DNA from: Eledone cirrhosa
Lineage: Eukaryota
Assembly: GCA_964016885.1 (NCBI GenBank)
Contig: OZ024742.1
Span: 45,508,001 to 45,572,000, forward strand
Reading direction: 5' to 3'
DNA length: 64,000 nucleotides
Shown: piece by piece, positions 3,525 to 64,000 of the stretch
How positions within the stretch are numbered: the first letter of the stretch is position 1
How the letters are laid out: every line of letters begins with the position of its first letter
Made by a program: the position numbers and the translations under genes
Notes under the pieces: model-generated
What the model was told of the DNA's origin: nothing
Database searches by the model: none
Seen by the model: the letters and a program-made list of their open reading frames with translations, nothing else

Positions 3525-6500
3525 ATCATCATCATCATCATCATCATCGTTTAACGTCCATGTTCCATGCTTGCATGGGTTTGGACGGGAGTTTTCCCAC
3601 TTGAGGCAAGAGTGGTTGTCTTGCTCGCATAGGACTGTCTGGCAGGTTTTCTACAGCTGGATGCCCTTCCTAACACCAACCACATTTACAGTGTGGGGCT
3701 GGGAGGTTTTTACTGTGTTGCCTACACGGCCACATTACAGCGTGGACTGTCTGGCGGGTTTTCTACAGCTGGATGCCCTTCCTTACAGTGTGGGACTGGG
3801 AGGTTTTTACCGTGTTGCCTACACGGCCACATTACAGCGTGGACTGTGTTTTTTGTCGTGGCACCTACACGATCTCATTTGTTTCGGCCTGGATGTTGTG
3901 GCACCAACATAACTTTACATTGAAAGGGGCGGTGTGGATGGGGTGGGGTGGTGGGACGGGGGTGTATTTTGTTAGAGATGCCTACTGACTGTAGTAGGTT
4001 TTACTTTGTATTTAGGTAAGGCGGGTCTTCTCTATTACTGAGTACCGCCAAAGGACTCGGTCCAGTGACATTGTCTTGGAGAGGTGTAAGTGTGTGAGGT
4101 CGGAATTTATCAGCTCGTCCCAGGTTTTTCTGGGTCTGCCTACTCCGTGGCTACCATCTATCTTTATTGCCCTGCACTTTGTTATACAGCTGTCGTCTTT
4201 CATGCACATCACGTGACCATACCAACGTAGCCTTCTCTCGAGTAAACAACATCTGATCCCTCTTATTTCTAATTTTTTCCTTAGTTCGTTTATGCTTTGC
4301 CGTTCACGTATATTATTATTACACATCCAGCGGAGCATGCAAGCTTCGTTCCTCTCTATTCTGCATATATCCTCTGCACACAATGCCCAGGTCTCACTGC
4401 CATGCAGCATTGCTGTTCGTATGCAGGCATCATACAACCTGCCTTTCATTTTTAGGGAGAACCCTTTAGCGGCTAATAGTGGTATAAGCTCTCTGAACTT
4501 TTTCCATCCAGTTCTGACTCTAGCTACTGTACTTTCAGAGCACCCTCCCCCACTGCTGATTTTGTCACCCAGGTAACGGAAGCTGTCCACTATTTCTATA
4601 GAACCCTCTGCGCAATTGAAAGAGCTAGTATTTTGTGGGCACTTGCTGCTACTTATTGCACCAGAGCATCGGCCACATGTAAAATCTATGTTCTTAGTTA
4701 GCTTACCTGTGATCCCACTACATCTTTTATGCACCCATACTTTGCATTTGGGACATAAAATGGAGTTTCTACCTATGCCTTTCCTACACACTGAGCATGG
4801 CCATTTCCCGGAAGGGACCGGCGCCTTATTTTCTTTCCTATAAACTAGAACTTTAGTCTTAGCCAGGTTAATTTTAAGGCCTTTTGATTCTAGGCCGTGC
4901 TTCCATGTTTGGAATTTCTTCTCTAGCTCGGCCATTGATTCAGCTATGAGCGTTAGATCATCTGTGTATAGGAGTTCCCATGGGCAGCCGGTCTTGAACT
5001 CCTCTGTTATAGCCTGAAGGGCAATAATAAATAGTAGGGGGCTAAGAACAGAGCCCTGATGGACACCAACTTTTACGCTAAACTCTTCACTATATTCGTT
5101 GTTAATTCTTACCTTGCTGACTGTTTCTTTATACATGGCTTGTATAGCTCTCACAAGCCATTCGTCAACACCTAGTTTTCTAAGAGCCCACCAGATAATG
5201 GAACGGGGGACTCTGTCGAAGGCTTTCTCCAAGTCGACAAAAGCTAAGTATAGGGGTTTACTTTTAGCTAGGTACTTCTCCTGTAGTTGTCGTACAATGA
5301 AAAGAGCGTCTGTGGTACTTTTGCCTGACACAAACCCGAACTGTATTTCATCTAGATCAATTCTCTCTCTGATTAGTTGCGCTATTACTTTTTCCGTGAC
5401 CTTCATGACCTGGTCGATTAATTTAATGCCTCTATAGTTACTCCTATCTAGGGCGTCTCCTTTACCCTTGTAACAGTTAACGATGATGCTGCTACGCCAG
5501 TCCTTCGGAACAACCCCATTCTGTATGACTTGGTTTACTATCCGGGTGACCATGGTGTGTCCCACCGTTCCAGAGGCTTTCAGCATCTCAGCAACTATTT
5601 CCGAAGGCCCAGCCGCCTTACCCGTCTTCATATCTTTGATTGCCTTACTTATTATACTACCTTCGACTAACACTGCTGGTCCCTTTATTGGGTCGATGTT
5701 GGTGAGACTGTCTTTCTCCCATTTATTCTCCTCATTTAGTAGCCTTTCGTAGTGACACTTCCAAGCTACCTTCTTATCAGCGTCAGTGATGGCAAGTACG
5801 CCATCATTGTTAAGTACACACTTCTCCCCGACAATATCACGGTTTTCCTTGACACATTGCCTAGCAATCCTGAACACCTCACGTTTTTGGTCCTCGCGTT
5901 GTAGAACATGCTTGAACTTTCTTTCCTCTGCTTCCCTTCTTGCGAAGTACACTTGTCTCCTAGCTTCCCTCCTGGCCACTTGACAGTCTTCTCTACTTCC
6001 CCCATCCTGCCATGCTTTCCAAGCCTGCTTTTTGGCCTTGATTGACCCCTCCACCTTACTGTTCCACCACCATGTTACTCTCCTCCTGCCTACAGGCCTG
6101 CTCCAGCCACAGACTTCGTCTGCCGCCATCAGCAGGTTTGCTTTCAGGAATTCCCACTGTTCCTCTACTTTGTACGACTCTAATTGCGCTTTCTTACTGT
6201 CGAAAGCATCAAGTAATATGCTTTGAAATTTATTTCTGGCTGTGGGATCCTTTAACTTCCATATTTTTCTCCTGAGGATAGTCCTCTTCTGCTGTCTAGT
6301 ACATCTCGTCCTGACTATGAGGTCGCTAATTATCAGTCTATGTTGGGAGGTGCATTCTTCATGGGGGAGGGATTTAGTGTTTACAACAGACACTCTGTCA
6401 CGTCTTCTGGTAAGGGTATAATCTACCTGGCTGGTATGTTCCCCTGATCTGTAGGTGATCAAGTGATTGTCTCGTTTTTTGAAGTTAGTGTTACAGATAG

Positions 6501-7540
6501 TTAGGTTGTTTGCATCACAGAATTCCAGGATTCTGGAGCCTTCCTCGTTTCTAGTACCAAACCCATAGCCTCCGTGGATTCCGTCATAGCCGTCACAATG
6601 TTGTCCAACGTGGCCATTTAGGTCGCCAGCAATAATTATATAGTCACTGTCGGTTATTTGGGAGGTAGTGAGTATCAGTGTCTCATAGAATCTGTCTTTT
6701 ATAGCGCCAGGCAGTCCGGATTGGGGCGCGTATGCAGACATTACTGTCACAGTAGTTCTGTTTAGAACAAGTCTTATTTTAATTATTCTGTCATTCACTC
6801 TATTTACATCTATTATCTTATCCACCCATTTTTCTGCTAACGTGATTCCTACCCCACCTATCCCATTGTCATTTCCCACCCAGAAAAGCTTATAGCAACG
6901 TTTTTTACCCACAATGAATCTAGCATCAACCTCCTTACGTTCAAGCAATTCTACAACCTCGTTAGAGCGGCCTTTTAAGGTGCCTACGTTCATGGTACCA
7001 ACTCTGAAGTTTTGGATTGTGTTTGGAGGATGGGGCGCAGGGAGGGGTGAGGGGAATGAGTTTGGGGTTATGTTGGCCATCCGCGACCAAAACAAAGGGG
7101 GGGGGGGCCTTGCCCTTTTGTCCGGCAGCATGAGGTGAACTTGTCGTTATCTTTGGCATTGTCATCGAGTGTTCAGATTCTTCACTCTCCAGAAATTCCC
7201 TAGTCCATCCATCATATCGAAAAGCAGCCAGTAGTGATAGCATAGGCCGTTGACTTGTGATTGGTCCAAATAGTAAAGGTGGAGAGTGGGGGCGGGAGGG
7301 AGGGATATGGGGTAGTTAGCAAAGAGAAGATTAATTAGAACAAGCGTGGAGAAGATTAATCTAGAACAGTGAGACGGAATTATAGGATAGCAACGATTGT
7401 AGATATATATGGATGAATGAACCAAGTTTTTAGGAAACAAGAAGAAAATCTGGTTTAGAATAGGCACACCATATCCATGTATGTTGTAAGAAGCAACTAA
7501 ATGGTTTGATATTATGAAGGACATTTGGCTGTAAAACATT
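3525..7540 (-). mobile_element. Near full-length RTE-clade LINE, antisense in an ALDH7A1 intron
   Basis: Single EN-RT ORF, a 3' UTR with repeated modules, and a 3' end GGACGTTAAAC(GAT)n. The 5' boundary is approximate. Confidence 0.92.
4012..7131 (-). CDS. RTE LINE ORF: APE endonuclease + reverse transcriptase with an inserted C4HC3 PHD-like finger
   Basis: Motifs VGTMNVGTL, SAYAPQ, AGDLNGHVG, SQHRL, FVDLEKAFDRV, GVHQGSVLSPLLF, YTDD, FRYLG, RLRWYGHV and GRPRKTW. Confidence 0.93.
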   Translation of the reverse strand: MLPDKRARPPPPLFWSRMANITPNSFPSPLPAPHPPNTIQNFRVGTMNVGTLKGRSNEVVELLERKEVDARFIVGKKRCYKLFWVGNDNGIGGVGITLAEKWVDKIIDVNRVNDRIIKIRLVLNRTTVTVMSAYAPQSGLPGAIKDRFYETLILTTSQITDSDYIIIAGDLNGHVGQHCDGYDGIHGGYGFGTRNEEGSRILEFCDANNLTICNTNFKKRDNHLITYRSGEHTSQVDYTLTRRRDRVSVVNTKSLPHEECTSQHRLIISDLIVRTRCTRQQKRTILRRKIWKLKDPTARNKFQSILLDAFDSKKAQLESYKVEEQWEFLKANLLMAADEVCGWSRPVGRRRVTWWWNSKVEGSIKAKKQAWKAWQDGGSREDCQVARREARRQVYFARREAEERKFKHVLQREDQKREVFRIARQCVKENRDIVGEKCVLNNDGVLAITDADKKVAWKCHYERLLNEENKWEKDSLTNIDPIKGPAVLVEGSIISKAIKDMKTGKAAGPSEIVAEMLKASGTVGHTMVTRIVNQVIQNGVVPKDWRSSIIVNCYKGKGDALDRSNYRGIKLIDQVMKVTEKVIAQLIRERIDLDEIQFGFVSGKSTTDALFIVRQLQEKYLAKSKPLYLAFVDLEKAFDRVPRSIIWWALRKLGVDEWLVRAIQAMYKETVSKVRINNEYSEEFSVKVGVHQGSVLSPLLFIIALQAITEEFKTGCPWELLYTDDLTLIAESMAELEKKFQTWKHGLESKGLKINLAKTKVLVYRKENKAPVPSGKWPCSVCRKGIGRNSILCPKCKVWVHKRCSGITGKLTKNIDFTCGRCSGAISSSKCPQNTSSFNCAEGSIEIVDSFRYLGDKISSGGGCSESTVARVRTGWKKFRELIPLLAAKGFSLKMKGRLYDACIRTAMLHGSETWALCAEDICRIERNEACMLRWMCNNNIRERQSINELRKKLEIRGIRCCLLERRLRWYGHVMCMKDDSCITKCRAIKIDGSHGVGRPRKTWDELINSDLTHLHLSKTMSLDRVLWRYSVIEKTRLT

Positions 7541-47875: not shown

Positions 47876-50530
47876 ATAATAATAATAACAATAATGAAAT
47901 ATTGTGTACAGTGCCCAGGTGCACCACAACTCATCAAAAAAGTGCATGTACAGTACATAGGGCAATGCACAAACATCAGTAAAATGGACAGTGCACGAGT
48001 CATGATACACACGTGTGCATGTGTATGGAAGGGGTACATCAGGTGTAGTTTTGGCGTATTTCGGGAAGCATGAGTGTCTTAAAGGATGCAGTGTCTCGGC
48101 AGCTAACAATTGACGCAGGCAGTTTGTTCCATGCTTCAGCAACTCTGAGCGTGAAAAAATGTCTACGAAAGTCATGGGAGCTGTGCTGTTTTCTTATCTT
48201 GTAGGCATGTCCACGTGTGTTAGACACATGGAGATCAAAGAGGCGCTCAGGGTTGCAATTGGCGAGATGGTTAAAAACTTTGTGGGTATTCACCAAGTCC
48301 ATTGCCAGACGTCGGAGCTTCAATGAATCCATGCCCAGGGAAGCAAGGCGTTCAGAGTATGGTAGGTGTCTGATAGAGGGTATGCGCTTGGTTGCACGTC
48401 TCTGAACAGTTTCCAGGAGGTCAATGTTCTGAGCAAGATAGGGGTTCCAGACTGATGATGCAAATTCCAAGTGTGGTCGAACCATAGCTGTATACAGTTT
48501 TAAATAGATGGCTGGAGAGCGGCTAACAAAGATCTTGCTGAGTGATGCCAAGACACCCTCGGCCTTCTTGACAATCTTAGAGACATGCTTTGTCCAACGC
48601 AAATCGTTGCTGACAGTAATGCCCAGGTCACGTTCACAAGAGGACTTTTTGATATCAATGTTGTGGAGGGAGTATGTGGACGCTGGATTTTTCCTTCCAA
48701 AATGCATGGTGGTACACTTGTCCACAGCCAGCTTCAGTTGCCAGTCTGTGATCCATTGCTGCATTGTGTCCAGGTCTGATTGTAGGAAAGAGTTGTAAAT
48801 TTCAGGATCAGTCCTTTTGATTTCAAGGTACAGCTTGATGTCATCTGCATATTTTAGTACCGTGGCATTCTGTAAGTTGGCATCTATGTCATTAATATAT
48901 GCCACAAACAAAAGAGGACCAAGAACAGATCCCTGTGGTACACCAGATAACATCTCATATGGTGAAGAATGCTGTCCTAGAACCGTGACTACTTCTTTTC
49001 GGCTGAGAATGAAGGATTTCAACCAGTCGAAAAGATCATCCCTCACACCCATTGCAGAGAGTTTTGCCATAAGTCTTTTGTGTGGCACAGAATTAAAAGC
49101 CTTAGCAAAGTCAAGGTAAACAACATCCACCCATGAGCCGCTGTCAGTGATCCGGGTGATGTCCTCAAGGAACTTGATAAGCTGATCACAGCAGCTGGAG
49201 TTAGGGATAAATCCAAACTGTGAGGGCCGGATGAGGCTGTGAGAGCTCCAGAAGTTCCAAAGTGTTTCTCTGACACAGGATTCCATCAGTTTGGCCATAC
49301 AGCTAGTAAGACTGACTGGACGATAGTTGACAGGTGACATGCGGTTGCCCTTTTTGAACAGGAGAATGACACTGGCAGTTTTCCACTGCTCCGGAGTAGC
49401 ATCATTGTTGAGACGGTATTGAAAGAAGAAAGAAAGCTGGTGCAAAAGGAAATACCCGCCACGTTTGAGAAGCAGGTATGTCACACCATCAAGACCAGGG
49501 GAGGCATAGTTGCGCTTATTCTTAAGGTGACGTCGCAACATTGTAGGTGTAAATTCCATAGTTGTTATGGAATTTGATGTTAGAGATGGTGGAGATGGTA
49601 CATTCTGGTTTTCAACAGTAAAAATACTTGCATAGCACTCAACAATGAGTTCTGCGCATTCCTTGGGATCGTCAGTGATCTGGCTTGTGTGGGGATTGCG
49701 AAGAGGACCAACTGGAGAGTGAGGTCTCTGCTTTGAATGAACATATTTCCAGAACACCTTACTGTCAGGATTGGTTGCGATGCACTGTTCAAATTCAAGC
49801 ACTGCCTTCTTTGTCACTTGCTTGAGATGGTTAGAAGATTTATTCCGCTTTTTTCTGTTGGCATCTGATTTATGCAGTTTATATTCCCGTTCAGCGTTCC
49901 GACATTCTTTCTTGGCAAGTCGGACCGCTGAAGTTTCCCAGATTGCACTTTTGGGGTGGTTATTTTTCCGCTTCCGTGGCACTGATGCTGCACACGCTAT
50001 CCATATTGAGTCCAGGATGCTCTGGAGTATAGAGTTCACATCTCCAGAGTTATACATCTCATGCCAGTTTGGGCGCTGTAACTCAGTGCAGTACAAGTTC
50101 CAATCCGCCCTCTTCCAATCAAAGCAAGCAGATTGGAGATGGCTCTGGTTTTTGTTGCTGCCCTCAAGTGCCAGATTGGCAATGATCATAGCATGATCAG
50201 AGTCGCCTAGAGGTTCCTCAGTAGTACAACTGATAACCACTTCAGGAGTAGTGGTGAAGATCAGGTCCAAAGTGTTGTCACCTCTTGTTGGAGAGGTGAC
50301 TACTTGTGACCAGTTTGAGTCCAGCACTAGTTCAAGGAAATCGTTTGCACCTTGTGGCCAACGAAAGGTTTCCCAATCGATCTCAGGATGATTGAAGTCA
50401 CCTGCAATAAACACATAAGTGGCTGTTTTCTTGGCAGCAACTCTGAGGATATCGCAAAGCTGTGTGTCCTGATGGTAGTTTGGGGGGCGATAAACAACAC
50501 CATATACTATGACAACCTGAGCTGTTGGTC
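47876..50530 (-). mobile_element. 5'-truncated CR1-group LINE
   Basis: Long ORF2 remnant plus a 3' UTR ending in an (ATT)n tail. A second copy of the 3' end lies in tandem at about 47745-47875. Confidence 0.92.
48039..50414 (-). CDS. CR1-group ORF2 (partial APE endonuclease + RT), N-terminally truncated
   Basis: AGDFNHP, TLDLIF, SDH, NYRPVSLTS, DVVYLDFAKAF, GVPQGSVLGPLLF, YADD, ERDLGI, LY..MVRPHLE. The frame stays open upstream through GVVYRPP. Confidence 0.9.
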   Translation of the reverse strand: MFIAGDFNHPEIDWETFRWPQGANDFLELVLDSNWSQVVTSPTRGDNTLDLIFTTTPEVVISCTTEEPLGDSDHAMIIANLALEGSNKNQSHLQSACFDWKRADWNLYCTELQRPNWHEMYNSGDVNSILQSILDSIWIACAASVPRKRKNNHPKSAIWETSAVRLAKKECRNAEREYKLHKSDANRKKRNKSSNHLKQVTKKAVLEFEQCIATNPDSKVFWKYVHSKQRPHSPVGPLRNPHTSQITDDPKECAELIVECYASIFTVENQNVPSPPSLTSNSITTMEFTPTMLRRHLKNKRNYASPGLDGVTYLLLKRGGYFLLHQLSFFFQYRLNNDATPEQWKTASVILLFKKGNRMSPVNYRPVSLTSCMAKLMESCVRETLWNFWSSHSLIRPSQFGFIPNSSCCDQLIKFLEDITRITDSGSWVDVVYLDFAKAFNSVPHKRLMAKLSAMGVRDDLFDWLKSFILSRKEVVTVLGQHSSPYEMLSGVPQGSVLGPLLFVAYINDIDANLQNATVLKYADDIKLYLEIKRTDPEIYNSFLQSDLDTMQQWITDWQLKLAVDKCTTMHFGRKNPASTYSLHNIDIKKSSCERDLGITVSNDLRWTKHVSKIVKKAEGVLASLSKIFVSRSPAIYLKLYTAMVRPHLEFASSVWNPYLAQNIDLLETVQRRATKRIPSIRHLPYSERLASLGMDSLKLRRLAMDLVNTHKVFNHLANCNPERLFDLHVSNTRGHAYKIRKQHSSHDFRRHFFTLRVAEAWNKLPASIVSCRDTASFKTLMLPEIRQNYT

Positions 50531-55354: not shown

Positions 55355-57771
55355 TCCCTATATATATAAAACGGTAGATATCTGTCTGTGTGTGTGTGTA
55401 TGATTTTTATGCATTTCCACATTTCTGTACCGATGTTGATGATTTTTTTTCCAATGTGCTCCAAATTTACCAAGTCAGGTCAACGCGTAATAATTTTTGC
55501 CAAAAATTTCCTGCTTCTATGAAAAAAAAATCGATAAATCTAAATACATGCTGTAACCTTCTCTCTTACACGCTTCATTCCTCTCACTACTGCCATCAAA
55601 AATCTATGAAACTACATACATGTTGCAACTCTCTCTCTATATATCACACACACACACACACACATATACATCTAAAGAGAGAAAGTGGGATGTAGAGAGA
55701 GTGAGATAGGTCGTTATACAAGATAATCAGATAGACAGAGAGAGAGAGAGAGAGAATGGCGACAAACGCTGGTTCATACACACACACAAACAAACACATA
55801 TATATATAGACAGAGATATGGCTTAGTGGTTAGAGCATTGGCCTTGCAATCGAAAGGTTGTGAGTTCAATTCTCAGACCGGGTGATGTGTTGTTTCCTTG
55901 AGCAAGAGACTTTATTTCACATTGCTCCAGTTTACTCAGCTGTAGAAATGAGATGATAGGGACTGGGGTCTCTATCATTCCACTGCAAAGTGGTCGTGGA
56001 GGTGCCATGGCAAAAAAGCACCCAGCACTCACTGTAAATGAGGTTGGTGTTAGGAAGGGCATCCAGCTGTAGAAATCGAGCCAGAATCAGTTCCCGTCTC
56101 ACCCTTGCAAGCAGGGAAAAGTGGACGTAAAATGAAATGATGAATGAATGATGAGAGAGAGAGAGATCTGTGCTTTCTTTATTGTTCTCCATTCTGTAGA
56201 AGAGAGAGAGGGGGGGTATGAGTGAGAGAGAGAGAGAGAGGGTATGAGTGAATGAGTGAGAGAGAGAGAGAGGGTATGAGAAAAAAGAGAGAGGGGGTTG
56301 AGAAAGAAAGTTTAAGCAAAGAATCGCTGCTTTCAACATTAACGGGATCTTCTGAAACTAATAAATTCAATCTGTGAACGCAGAATTAAATATTTCGGGA
56401 AACATTGCAACCGAAGGAAAACAGGAAGATGATAGTTTGGTTCGTGAAGATGTTCCCTGTCAATGAACGGAAAAAAAGCGAGGATAATACGTCGTTATGT
56501 GGAGCGAGAAGAACAATTTCATGCAAAGACGAGACCAAGTTTATGGTATAAATGGAGTCATTAAACTAATATTCTATTTAAAATAATCGAATGATTTCCA
56601 GCCCCGGAGTTTAAGAATGATGTAAATAAAATTGTAAACGAAAATGACAGAGGTTATTAAAATAGTTGTTTCTACTTTTGGCATAAGGCTAGCATTACCC
56701 AGTACATTACTGGTAATTTATTTTATCAACCCCGTAAGGATGAAAGGCAAAGTTAACCTCGACGGGATTTTAACTTTGTCTTAAAATAGTAAAAGTAAAT
56801 AGTGAAGATTTAGGCCAGTACATACGTATGCGCCGACGGACATACACATACATATACATACGCACACACAAATACATACACACACACACACAAATACATA
56901 CACACACACACAAACACGCACGCACGTGCGTGTGTGTGTAAACCTTATACATTTCTAGAGTATTTTCACCAAACTTAAGACATAGGTTACTTATGTACTC
57001 CGGATGGTCATGGGCACTTTCATTTTTCCAGATATTGATTATAGGGCCTCCCGGCAGACAACCCCCTTCAACCACTTCCTTGAAGTCGACTGAAGCACTG
57101 CAGTGCAATGCAACAAAACGTCATAACTTCTGGAGTTCGCAACCGATTTTCACAAAACTTGACACATGGGCTACGTTTGTTCTACAGATGAATGTGAAAG
57201 GAACTTAACATTGTAACTTTAACACAGCTACTGAGCAGCCTCGAGCAACGCCGAGCTTTACTGCTATAGGCGATAAAGTTGTGCAGACACAGTCGTGCAG
57301 AGAGGTGATATAGGCGATAAAGTTGTGCAGACACAGTCGTGCAGAGAGGTGATATAGGCGATAAAGTTGTGCAGACAGACAGTCGTGCAGAGAGGTGATA
57401 GGCGATAAAATTGCATTTTTTTTTTTTTTTTCCATGTCCATCCAATTTCTTTGTTTCAAAATAACTGATATTTTGGTTACGCTGATGTTTTTCTCTGAGA
57501 CAAGTGTTGCAGTGTTTACATTTTCGATTTATGTTAATAGATTACCAGTGCAGTTTTTATCCCCAGCATCCTCTTTTGTTTTAACATTTGAGTTATGGTT
57601 GTTTTCTTAACTTCATAAGGCATATTGTTGGTTGAGTGAATATTAATCAAAAGTACCACATGAAAGTCTACATTATAGACTCTACAGTTTTTAAGCCAAG
57701 AAAGGAACTTAACATTGTAACTTTAACACAGCTATTGAGCAGCCCCGAGCAACGCCGGGCTTTACTGCTAG
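55355..57771 (+). mobile_element. Non-autonomous Helitron (3' part related to 16370-17409) with nested SINE/RTE fragments
   Basis: The 3' hairpin + CTAG|T at 57768-57772 matches the 16370 copy. Candidate 5' end A|TCCCTATATATATAAAA at 55355 is less certain. Confidence 0.65.
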
Positions 57772-58489: not shown

Positions 58490-59025
58490 ATAACCAGCTC
58501 AGCTCAGTCCTATACAATGATCCAGCCATGTCAAGTTCAGTCAAATTAAGCTCATCCTGATCCAGTCCACTCCAACTCAGTCTAGTCTAATCAAATCCAG
58601 TTCAAGCCAGTCTAACCCAGTCCACTCCAACATAGCCCCATCCAATCCAAATCAATCCAACCCAACACAGTCCAATCCCACCCAACCCAACCCAGTCAAA
58701 CCCTGCCTAGTCCAACCCAACCCAACCCAGTCAAACCCTGCCTAATCCAACTCAACCCAGTCAAACCCTGCCTAGTCCAACCCAAATAAACCCAACCCAA
58801 TCCAATCCAGTCCAACCCCATCCAATCCAACCCAATCAAGTCCAACCCAACCCAGTTTAACCCAATCCAACCCAACCCAGTCCAACTCAATCCAACCAAA
58901 TCCTATCCAACCCAATTCAACCCAATCCTACCTAATCCAGTCCAGTCCAACCAAATCCTACTCAATCCAGTCAAACCCAATCCTATTTAGTCCAAAACCA
59001 CTCCAACCCAGTCCACCTAGTCAAG
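58490..59025. repeat. Degenerate pentanucleotide microsatellite (CCAAC/CCAAT/CCAGT)n
   Basis: Seen directly in the sequence. Confidence 0.92.
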
Positions 59026-62405: not shown

Positions 62406-62526
62406 TAGAATTTGAACAGAAAAAACAGAAATACATAGCGATGGAATAGAGCTTACTTCTGTTATTTTGATCTTTTGATATGCTTAGTGCTGATGTTTGG
62501 TGTTGTTTTCCGATCTCTCGCTCTCT

Positions 62527-62758
62527 ATCTATATATCTATATCTATATATATATATATCTGTATATATATAGACATATATATATATATATATATATCTAT
62601 ATATATATATATATAGATAGATAGATAGATATATATATAGATATAGATAGATAGATATATATATAGATATAGATAGATAGATATATATATAGATATAGAT
62701 ATAGATAGATAGATATATATATAGATATAGATATATATAGATATAGATATATAGATAT

Positions 62759-62809
<51 letters not shown>

Positions 62810-63068
62810 TATATATAGATATATATAGATATATATATAGATATATATATAGATATATATATAGATATATATATATATAGATATATATATAGATATATAT
62901 ATAGATATATATATAGATATATATAGATATATATATATATAGATATATATATAGATATATATATAGATATATATATATATAGATATATATATAGATATAT
63001 ATATAGATATATATATAGATATATAGATATATATATAGATATATATATAGATATATATATAGATATAT
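62527..63068. repeat. Long (AT)n/(AGAT)n compound microsatellite
   Basis: Seen directly in the sequence. It accounts for the YI-repeat ORFs. Confidence 0.97.
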
Positions 63069-63288
63069 ACAATTAAGTTAAAGTGTACATCTACATATGT
63101 ATACGGAAGTATTAGTATGCATATAAATACACACATGTATACATATGTACATGTACTAAGTTTTTCACTAGACACTTTACAGTGAGTGTCAGCTAGTCTG
63201 TATGTAACCACACAGACGGACCGGGTTTTAGAGTCATACGAGTTTTCAAGGAAACACATTTCCTCTATTCTCCAGAGGGCCAGACAGG

Positions 63289-63333
63289 AATATTGGACTA
63301 GTTTCGATGTTATTACATCTCATCAGCAATATT
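63289..63333 (-). ncRNA. Type I hammerhead ribozyme, identical copy on the minus strand
   Basis: Exact reverse complement of 63778-63822. Confidence 0.9.
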
Positions 63334-63777
63334 TACCCATCTTCCGGCTTCTCTGGAGAATTGTAAAAGCACATATCGTTATATGCTTTTTCTATGAAAA
63401 TTAGTAGTGGGTAGACTAATTTGCATAGAACGTGAGTCATTGTACGCACCGGTTCAGCGGAAACGATAAAAACAAATAACAATATGTACATGTACATATG
63501 TATACATGTGTGTATTTATATGCATACTAATACTTCCGTATACATATGTAGATGTACACTTTAACTTAATTGTTTAAGCGTCAGTCATACAAAAGTGAGT
63601 TAGAAGCGAAACGAAATTTAATTTCGTTTCGTTATTTGTTTTTATCGTTTCCGCTGAACCGGTGCGTACAATGACTCACGTTCTATGCAAATTAGTCTAC
63701 CCACTACTAATTTTCATAGAAAAAGCATATAACGATATGTGCTTTTACAATTCTCCAGAGAAGCCGGAAGATGGGTA

Positions 63778-63822
63778 AATATTGCTGATGAGATGTAATA
63801 ACATCGAAACTAGTCCAATATT
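63778..63822 (+). ncRNA. Type I hammerhead ribozyme, consensus core
   Basis: Stem I AATATTG/CAATATT, core CTGATGA, stem II GATGT-AATA-ACATC, GAAA, palindromic mini stem III AC-TA-GT, and predicted cleavage after GTC (63815). Confidence 0.9.
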
Positions 63823-64000
63823 CCTGTCTGGCCCTCTGGAGAATAGAGGAAATGTGTTTCCTTGAAAACTCGTATGACTCTAAAACCCGGTCCGTCTGTG
63901 TGGTTACATACAGACTAGCTGACACTCACTGTAAAGTGTCTAGTGAAAAACTTAGTACATGTACATATGTATACATGTGTGTATTTATATGCATACTAAT

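Follow-up and report, generated by a model that had tools for sequence, protein, structure and literature searches.

Head-to-head insertions of a hammerhead-bearing, retrozyme-like repeat pair two different fixed 3' ends in TA microsatellites

At the right-hand end of the window—the whole 64,000-nt stretch of DNA that was analysed (G000:C3:45508001-45572000, in a 3.0-Gb genome)—we find a head-to-head insertion of a 469-nt tandem monomer set between TA tracts; comparison with its relatives points to a simple rule, in that the two arms of such insertions end at two different fixed sites, one arm at site ‘A’ and the other at site ‘B’. We assign the element with high confidence to the non-LTR retrozymes, as a non-autonomous Penelope-like element (PLE). 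The best explanation, and one that we consider probable from the comparison of copies, is that a retrozyme unit is cut by its hammerhead, likely circularized, and written into TA microsatellites by twin priming in trans. The element ends 583 nt beyond the window; sequence read past the window end (locus L013) gives a tandem period of 469 with 2.3 copies, and contains a third hammerhead motif, within the right arm. Monomer positions are numbered from +1 = 63816, the first base 3' of the predicted cut (Table 1).

Table 1. Positions of the element and its parts (window coordinates, except where L013 is given)
Feature	Position	Strand	Basis
(TA)n/(TATATATATAGA)n target tract, left flank	62526..63068	.	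sequence reading
Left arm: 412 nt, 0.88 monomer (285->469->227), 5'-truncated, 3' end at site A	63069..63480	-	
Type I hammerhead motif, left arm; predicted cut between 63296 and 63295	63289..63333	-	
Head-to-head junction: 5-nt filler within 18-nt palindrome (63482-63499)	63481..63485	.	
Right arm: 1,098 nt, 2.34 monomers (140->299), ends at site B at 64583 (L013:2583)	63486..64000 within window	+	
Site A (monomer 225-231): first of the two fixed 3' ends, here as an internal copy; putative RT start	63571..63577	+	
A-to-B ‘tail’, ~70 nt, with 13-bp hairpin	63572..63645	+	fold
Site B (monomer 295-299)	63641-63645	+	
Hairpin bearing ATGCAAAT (63685-63692); retained in sister family	63681..63719	+	
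Type I hammerhead motif, right arm; cut predicted 3' of GUC (63815)	63778..63822	+	Rfam HH9, motif string
Second TA tract, after the element	L013:2581-3207		sequence beyond window

Much of an earlier note's description of this locus holds: the inverted arms of at least 370 bp are there (63111-63480 and 63631-64000, 370 nt and 100% complementary), coding capacity is absent (the longest ATG ORF on the circular monomer is 64 aa), and a TA/TAGA tract lies beside the element on its left, where a TA/AGAT tract had been described. ‘Fold-back’, the term used for it, is the wrong picture, because the arms are pieces of the 469-nt tandem monomer that end at different fixed sites. The suggested alternative, the end of a PLE continuing past the window, does not hold either: the right arm stops at 64583 and is followed by a TA tract, no Penelope-type ORF is found beyond 64000, and neither the element nor its continuation gives a PLE-type protein match, so that the RT plus GIY-YIG ORF of an autonomous EN+ PLE is absent from the element. 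The best direct repeat across the insertion is a 19-nt TA/AG run, too simple to be called a target-site duplication (TSD). Folded as a circle, the monomer reaches -157.7 kcal/mol (z -10.7 against 60 dinucleotide shuffles), a value to which TA-rich palindromes contribute. One of its hairpins presents ATGCAAAT, which we take to be a possible snRNA-type octamer; a parallel is newt satellite-2, which is said to carry a promoter with an octamer of this type. A broken LINE-like stretch 3' of the element (L013:3900-5900, minus strand) is, judged by eye, positionally unrelated to it.

The complete hammerhead claimed for each arm is present, the quoted string occurring at both places listed in Table 1, with the type I core (CUGANGA / GAAA / NUH) and stems I–III. 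Rfam model HH9 also matches both, at 31.8 bits (E 7e-5) and thus under its gathering score of 52; at gathering level there is no Rfam match in the whole window. That each strand carries a hammerhead is correct as far as it goes, both arms carrying one sense-strand motif in opposite orientations; a search of the monomer turned up no antisense hammerhead, and the viroid-like arrangement of hammerheads in both polarities of one monomer is accordingly not seen. The description ‘minimal’ fits stem III, which comprises one or two pairs on the palindromic ACUAGU, and does not fit stem I (7 bp) or stem II (5 bp). Among relatives the cleavage triplet is GUC, GUU or GUA. Across 10 related copies, 7 of the 16 hammerhead pairs show compensatory, two-sided changes, with 92.5% of cells paired, judged against a shuffle control that takes no account of relatedness among the copies; stem III is invariant in all 10. 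The ribozyme core is altered in 1 of 720 locus-positions, versus 1.4% overall, and is intact in 190 of 205 units. Rfam matches to miRNA and snoRNA models were rejected as TA-palindrome noise below threshold.

The proposal that this is a recently mobile, non-autonomous Penelope-type ribozyme retroelement fares well at the scale of the genome. At least 27 copies are 100% identical over 320 nt, and exact 31-nt ribozyme cores number 1,463 (reversed control, 0); a looser pattern, covering the wider family, matches 23,070 times (control, 0). These counts, together with 45 head-to-head loci that have distinct junctions, dispose of the single-copy outcome that the earlier note had named as a refutation. 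Several marks of a non-LTR retrozyme are found here: a non-coding tandem unit of some hundred nucleotides, a type I hammerhead in each, and dispersed copies with TSDs of more than 4 bp where these are present; so too are several marks of a non-autonomous PLE, namely tandem and inverted 5'-truncated copies, a one-sided tail and a microsatellite target.

The evidence for fixed ends comes from 34 loci taken from the best-scoring matches and 29 among the first 100 listed cores on C1, with three long arrays and the duplicated locus L086 excluded from the count of 3' ends. Of 109 segment 3' ends, 99 fall at A (46) or B (53), two sites ~70 nt apart and distant from the ribozyme cut. We infer that the hammerhead makes the monomer yet does not set the insertion ends. 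Among the 45 head-to-head insertions, 39 pair A with B, one is B+B and five have one end outside either site; where both ends lie at A or B, the A+B pairing is seen in 22 of the 23 picked by score and in all 17 picked by position (pooled P 4e-11; P 8e-6 in the position-picked set alone). The left arm takes A in 18 of the A+B insertions and B in 21, and the lengths of A and B arms are uncorrelated (rho 0.02, n=36). The B+B exception, L034, carries an inverted flank of 206 nt, as a fold-back would leave. By eye, the rule extends to 4 of 4 older copies (L159, L165, L169, L120), to 5 of 5 sister-family copies (L130-133, L148, L155, L156, L168), and, in four autonomous Neptune-like families whose tails span 36–68 nt, to 16 of 16 inverted pairs.

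These four families encode an RT, a CxxC-type linker—on which, rather than on a tree, the label ‘Neptune-like’ rests—and, at the C terminus, a GIY-YIG; of four ORFs scanned with Pfam, all score for RT and three for GIY-YIG. Their inverted pairs number 6 (36-nt tail), 6 (68-nt tail), 1 and 3, a tail-to-tail pair at L044 being excluded and taken as two insertions. Copies of the young families, whose long open frames reach 1,289 aa, are 97–99% identical. In the youngest Neptune-like family (L113:3140-3720, minus strand; L114, L117, L123, L125), copies are up to 99.3% alike and have a hammerhead-like motif with stem III AGUACU ~130 nt upstream of the A end. Sharing target and end rule, the Neptune-like families are candidates for supplying the machinery to our element. 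The monomer does not resemble the terminal repeats of any of the six autonomous families compared (z at most 0.8), and no ORF-linked copy of the window hammerhead appeared in the GIY-YIG search (150 of 10,596 candidates scored, ~45 loci read), in 20 long-ORF stretches, in 20 stretches around variant hammerheads, or in the 5' flanks of 20 single-orientation or odd copies. At L017:4652-8391 we observe a retrozyme B arm, 41 nt of retrozyme and a 5'-truncated Neptune-like arm ending at its own A site; this possible chimera is a lead, no further, to a partner element, and is weakened as a clue since L160 adjoins old PLE debris.

At loci with informative flanks the insertions are bounded by direct TSDs of 11–33 nt, retained at L019, L035, L041, L046, L079 and L088. 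Clean junctions between arms overlap by at least 2 nt in 18 of 25 cases, against 17% under the null, the overlaps being BLAST-derived and possibly inflated; fillers occur in 10 of 36, and one junction has a 34-nt overlap.

As to the template, 88 of 99 arms cross the predicted ribozyme cut, and 5 of 99 5' ends lie no more than 10 nt away from it, about as many as the 4.2 expected; with read-through and no pile-up of 5' ends, the template is therefore not a cut linear monomer. Within a locus, the left and right arms resemble each other more closely than they do arms elsewhere (median rank 0.017 over 36 loci), and of the rare variants seen in at least two units, 43 of 49 are present in all units covering them, mostly in both arms. 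On the ribozyme strand, these all-unit private variants comprise 21 A>G versus 2 T>C of 31 (9 versus 2 loci), the long arrays and two old-subfamily copies having been dropped (25 versus 9 with those two copies), whereas single-unit variants comprise 7 A>G versus 22 T>C of 138. Ten of the 21 A>G changes come from one locus, L088 (L088:1913-3206), without which the count is 11 versus 2 (P 0.009); there they cluster at monomer 311-435 and are in every unit, yet the edits lie in one arm only, and the locus looks like the copy of a hyper-edited template. From its spectrum, we would attribute the all-unit bias to A-to-I (ADAR) editing of a sense RNA that was copied repeatedly, and the single-unit variants to RT or later errors. 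The neighbour preference of the A>G sites is weak (5' U in 12 of 25, versus 33%; no excess of 3' G), and their helix context does not discriminate (18 of 19 versus 120 of 147). Gene conversion between arms was rejected as the main source of shared variants, because the A>G spectrum differs from that of post-insertion changes (21 of 31 versus 7 of 138; P 1e-13) and because older arms differ by 1–2.6%. In long arrays, by contrast with the dispersed copies, variants are common to subsets of units; some of the tandem structure therefore stems from expansion at the DNA level.

Cut read-through would be expected equally if the template were a linear multimer, transcribed from tandem arrays and left uncleaved, or two transcripts of one source locus, in which case twin priming at A and B would be the same and the hammerhead a passenger; we regard this as unlikely, if of some weight. 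Arrays of 14 to more than 50 units do exist, carrying lineage variants that dispersed copies also have; C138T, found in most units of the 14-unit array L016, is also in the window copy, which could therefore stem from a linear array transcript. The anole PLE uses unprocessed RNA in vitro (PMC11167929), autonomous linear PLEs follow the same A/B rule, and the L017 B arm joined to a Neptune-like arm would need two RNAs if made in one event, although that Neptune arm, which is degraded, may be old debris like that at L160. What speaks for a monomer is that A>G sets identical in every unit (10 sites at L088; 9 loci) would need one as template at some generation, that units of real arrays differ mutually and subset variants are rare in dispersed insertions (6 of 49), and that the ribozyme core is conserved and its stems compensatory.

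The head-to-head plan itself might arise when one cDNA, or an antisense template, primes itself, a route put forward for rotifer Penelope elements (PMC3846280). L034 resembles such a product, with its B+B ends and inverted flank, and the window junction has its 18-nt palindrome; self-priming nonetheless predicts equal ends, where 39 of 40 insertions are A+B, the arm lengths of 12 of 35 pairs rule out fold-back from either arm, direct TSDs are kept at six loci, and the excess of A>G rather than T>C identifies the ribozyme strand as template, all of which makes this origin very improbable. Least credible is an assembly or long-read fold-back artefact, an outcome named beforehand in the earlier note, or a satellite spread by recombination only: the arms are indeed near-identical and set in simple repeats, but they are asymmetric, with different ends and flanks that are not inverted (6 nt), and the same plan recurs at the 45 loci with distinct junctions and TSDs, and in families 55–90% identical; a contig from another organism, moreover, ends in TA at site B.

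Returning to twin priming on a hammerhead-cut unit, we envisage that a tandem transcript would be cut by the hammerhead into 469-nt monomers, likely as a dimer because, as in axolotl HHR_Amex1, a palindrome forms the minimal helix III, and that the monomer would likely be ligated into a circle. This circle would be captured by a Penelope-family RT/GIY-YIG protein acting in trans; staggered nicks would be made in (TA)n, and on a single sense-strand RNA one target strand would prime at A, the other at B; each RT would roll round the circle, halting at random, after which the two cDNA 3' ends may anneal by microhomology and prime second strands, with fill-in. That a single circle serves both primers is suggested by the variants held in common by the two arms, and we think it fairly likely; the fuller picture, of a dimeric RT-endonuclease gripping one circular ribozyme RNA at two fixed sites and rolling from both nicked strands, we would put only a little above even. 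In published work, retrozyme circles have been hypothesized as copying templates (PMC7229834); against the proposed cleavage, only 1 of 9 Xenopus retrozyme dimers cleaved in vitro (bioRxiv 10.64898/2026.07.22.740005). For the anole PLE in vitro, both strands are cut and extended, by a predicted dimer, RT starts at two internal sites bounding the tail, and, less favourably to our reading, the ribozyme is dispensable for insertion (Frangieh 2024, PMC11167929).

Our element resembles described non-LTR retrozymes in its non-coding tandem unit of a few hundred nucleotides (36% GC) with one type I hammerhead each, its palindromic minimal helix III, TSDs above 4 bp, stable circular fold, and the PLEs in the same genome. 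At 469 nt the unit slightly exceeds the 150–450 bp quoted in 2020 (Cervera & de la Pena, PMC7229834) and falls within the 51–972 of 2026 (Li, Clavereau & Pollet, bioRxiv 10.64898/2026.07.22.740005), the latter work counting retrozymes among the non-autonomous PLE sequences; for retrozymes, TA targeting, two fixed ends and inverted arms are absent from the accessible text of both accounts. With EN+ PLEs (Neptune/Naiad/Poseidon) it shares partial tandems, an inverted 5'-truncated copy, a tail at one end only, (TA)n targets and two RT starts bounding the tail; unlike them it has no ORF and, as noted, no alignable homology to the six local autonomous terminal repeats. The tail is ~70 nt, versus 30–40 in EN+ PLEs, one autonomous family here having 68; and where the tail of EN+ PLEs is optional or often at one end, with inverted 5' copies (Craig 2021, PMC8557442; Arkhipova 2013, PMC3846280), in our family exactly one arm has it, near-obligately. 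MRC1 and other non-autonomous Chlamys elements are likewise non-coding PLE dependants with head-to-tail multicopy insertions, but they have no canonical hammerheads, and their 3' end resembles that of the autonomous partner (PMC8557442). The origin of inverted, one-tailed Penelope insertions is there called open (PMC8557442). The present copies are a new family within a known class, and are unusually clean genomic evidence on that question; in the open-access literature searched we found no published account of the 469-nt family, of obligate A/B pairing, or of edited circles in genomic retrozymes.

In L1 twin priming, both target strands prime, the second at a variable internal site; the resulting head-to-head inversion is joined by microhomology, the TSD is kept, and the arms do not overlap on the template. 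Our insertions share the inversion, the microhomology junction and the retained TSD, and differ in having two fixed sites and arms that are copies of one and the same sequence. If the twin-priming reading is true, it would explain the inverted pLTR with one-sided tail for all EN+ Penelope elements, provide, through ADAR edits in every unit, the first genomic evidence of animal retrozyme circles as templates, and amount to two-strand, rolling-circle TPRT occurring in nature, by which circular RNAs are written into a defined DNA target. With its two defined starts and near-obligate A+B rule, this young 469-nt family also offers a minimal template, and sharp predictions, for the existing in vitro PLE assay.

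Relatives are plentiful. A sister family of ~473 nt, with 742 candidates in the genome, aligns with the monomer at 274 of 494 columns; its copies (L120:8570-10000, L130-L149) have an internal variable (TA)n, a GUA triplet and their own A/B ends 62–65 nt apart. At least five more type I hammerhead families with palindromic stem III (UAUAUA, UGCGCA and CCACUGG types), often as inverted pairs, were seen at L030, L031, L034, L036, L044, L006 and others. Part of the 469-nt unit is present in 20 public runs from 15 studies, among which no RNA run is listed; of four runs examined, two from other organisms give many variant contigs, mostly 90–100% alike, and one of these contigs ends in TA at site B. 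Run X1 yields one 499-nt self-closing contig at depth 2.4, which fits a circle and tandem DNA alike, and run X19, guessed to be RNA, gave no contig of the unit. Some insertions have grown into satellite-like arrays (L106/L107/L109 at C1:95.62-95.65 Mb, L077, L016) with more than 50 units (the far end not reached), higher-order repeats, and an A end that still caps them. L085 and L086 (C1:55.97 and 55.99 Mb) are one insertion found twice, 17.7 kb apart, either a segmental duplication or an assembly duplicate.

Elsewhere in the window, two open frames on the minus strand (4012-7146 and 48039-50528; 1,044 and 829 aa stop to stop) contain APE endonuclease and RT domains and are LINEs, the former with a PHD finger scored directly after the RT domain. 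A degenerate (CCAAC/CCAGT)n pentamer satellite occupies 58556-59017, and a sub-threshold tRNA-like match at 55819-55876 on the plus strand is possibly the head of a SINE.
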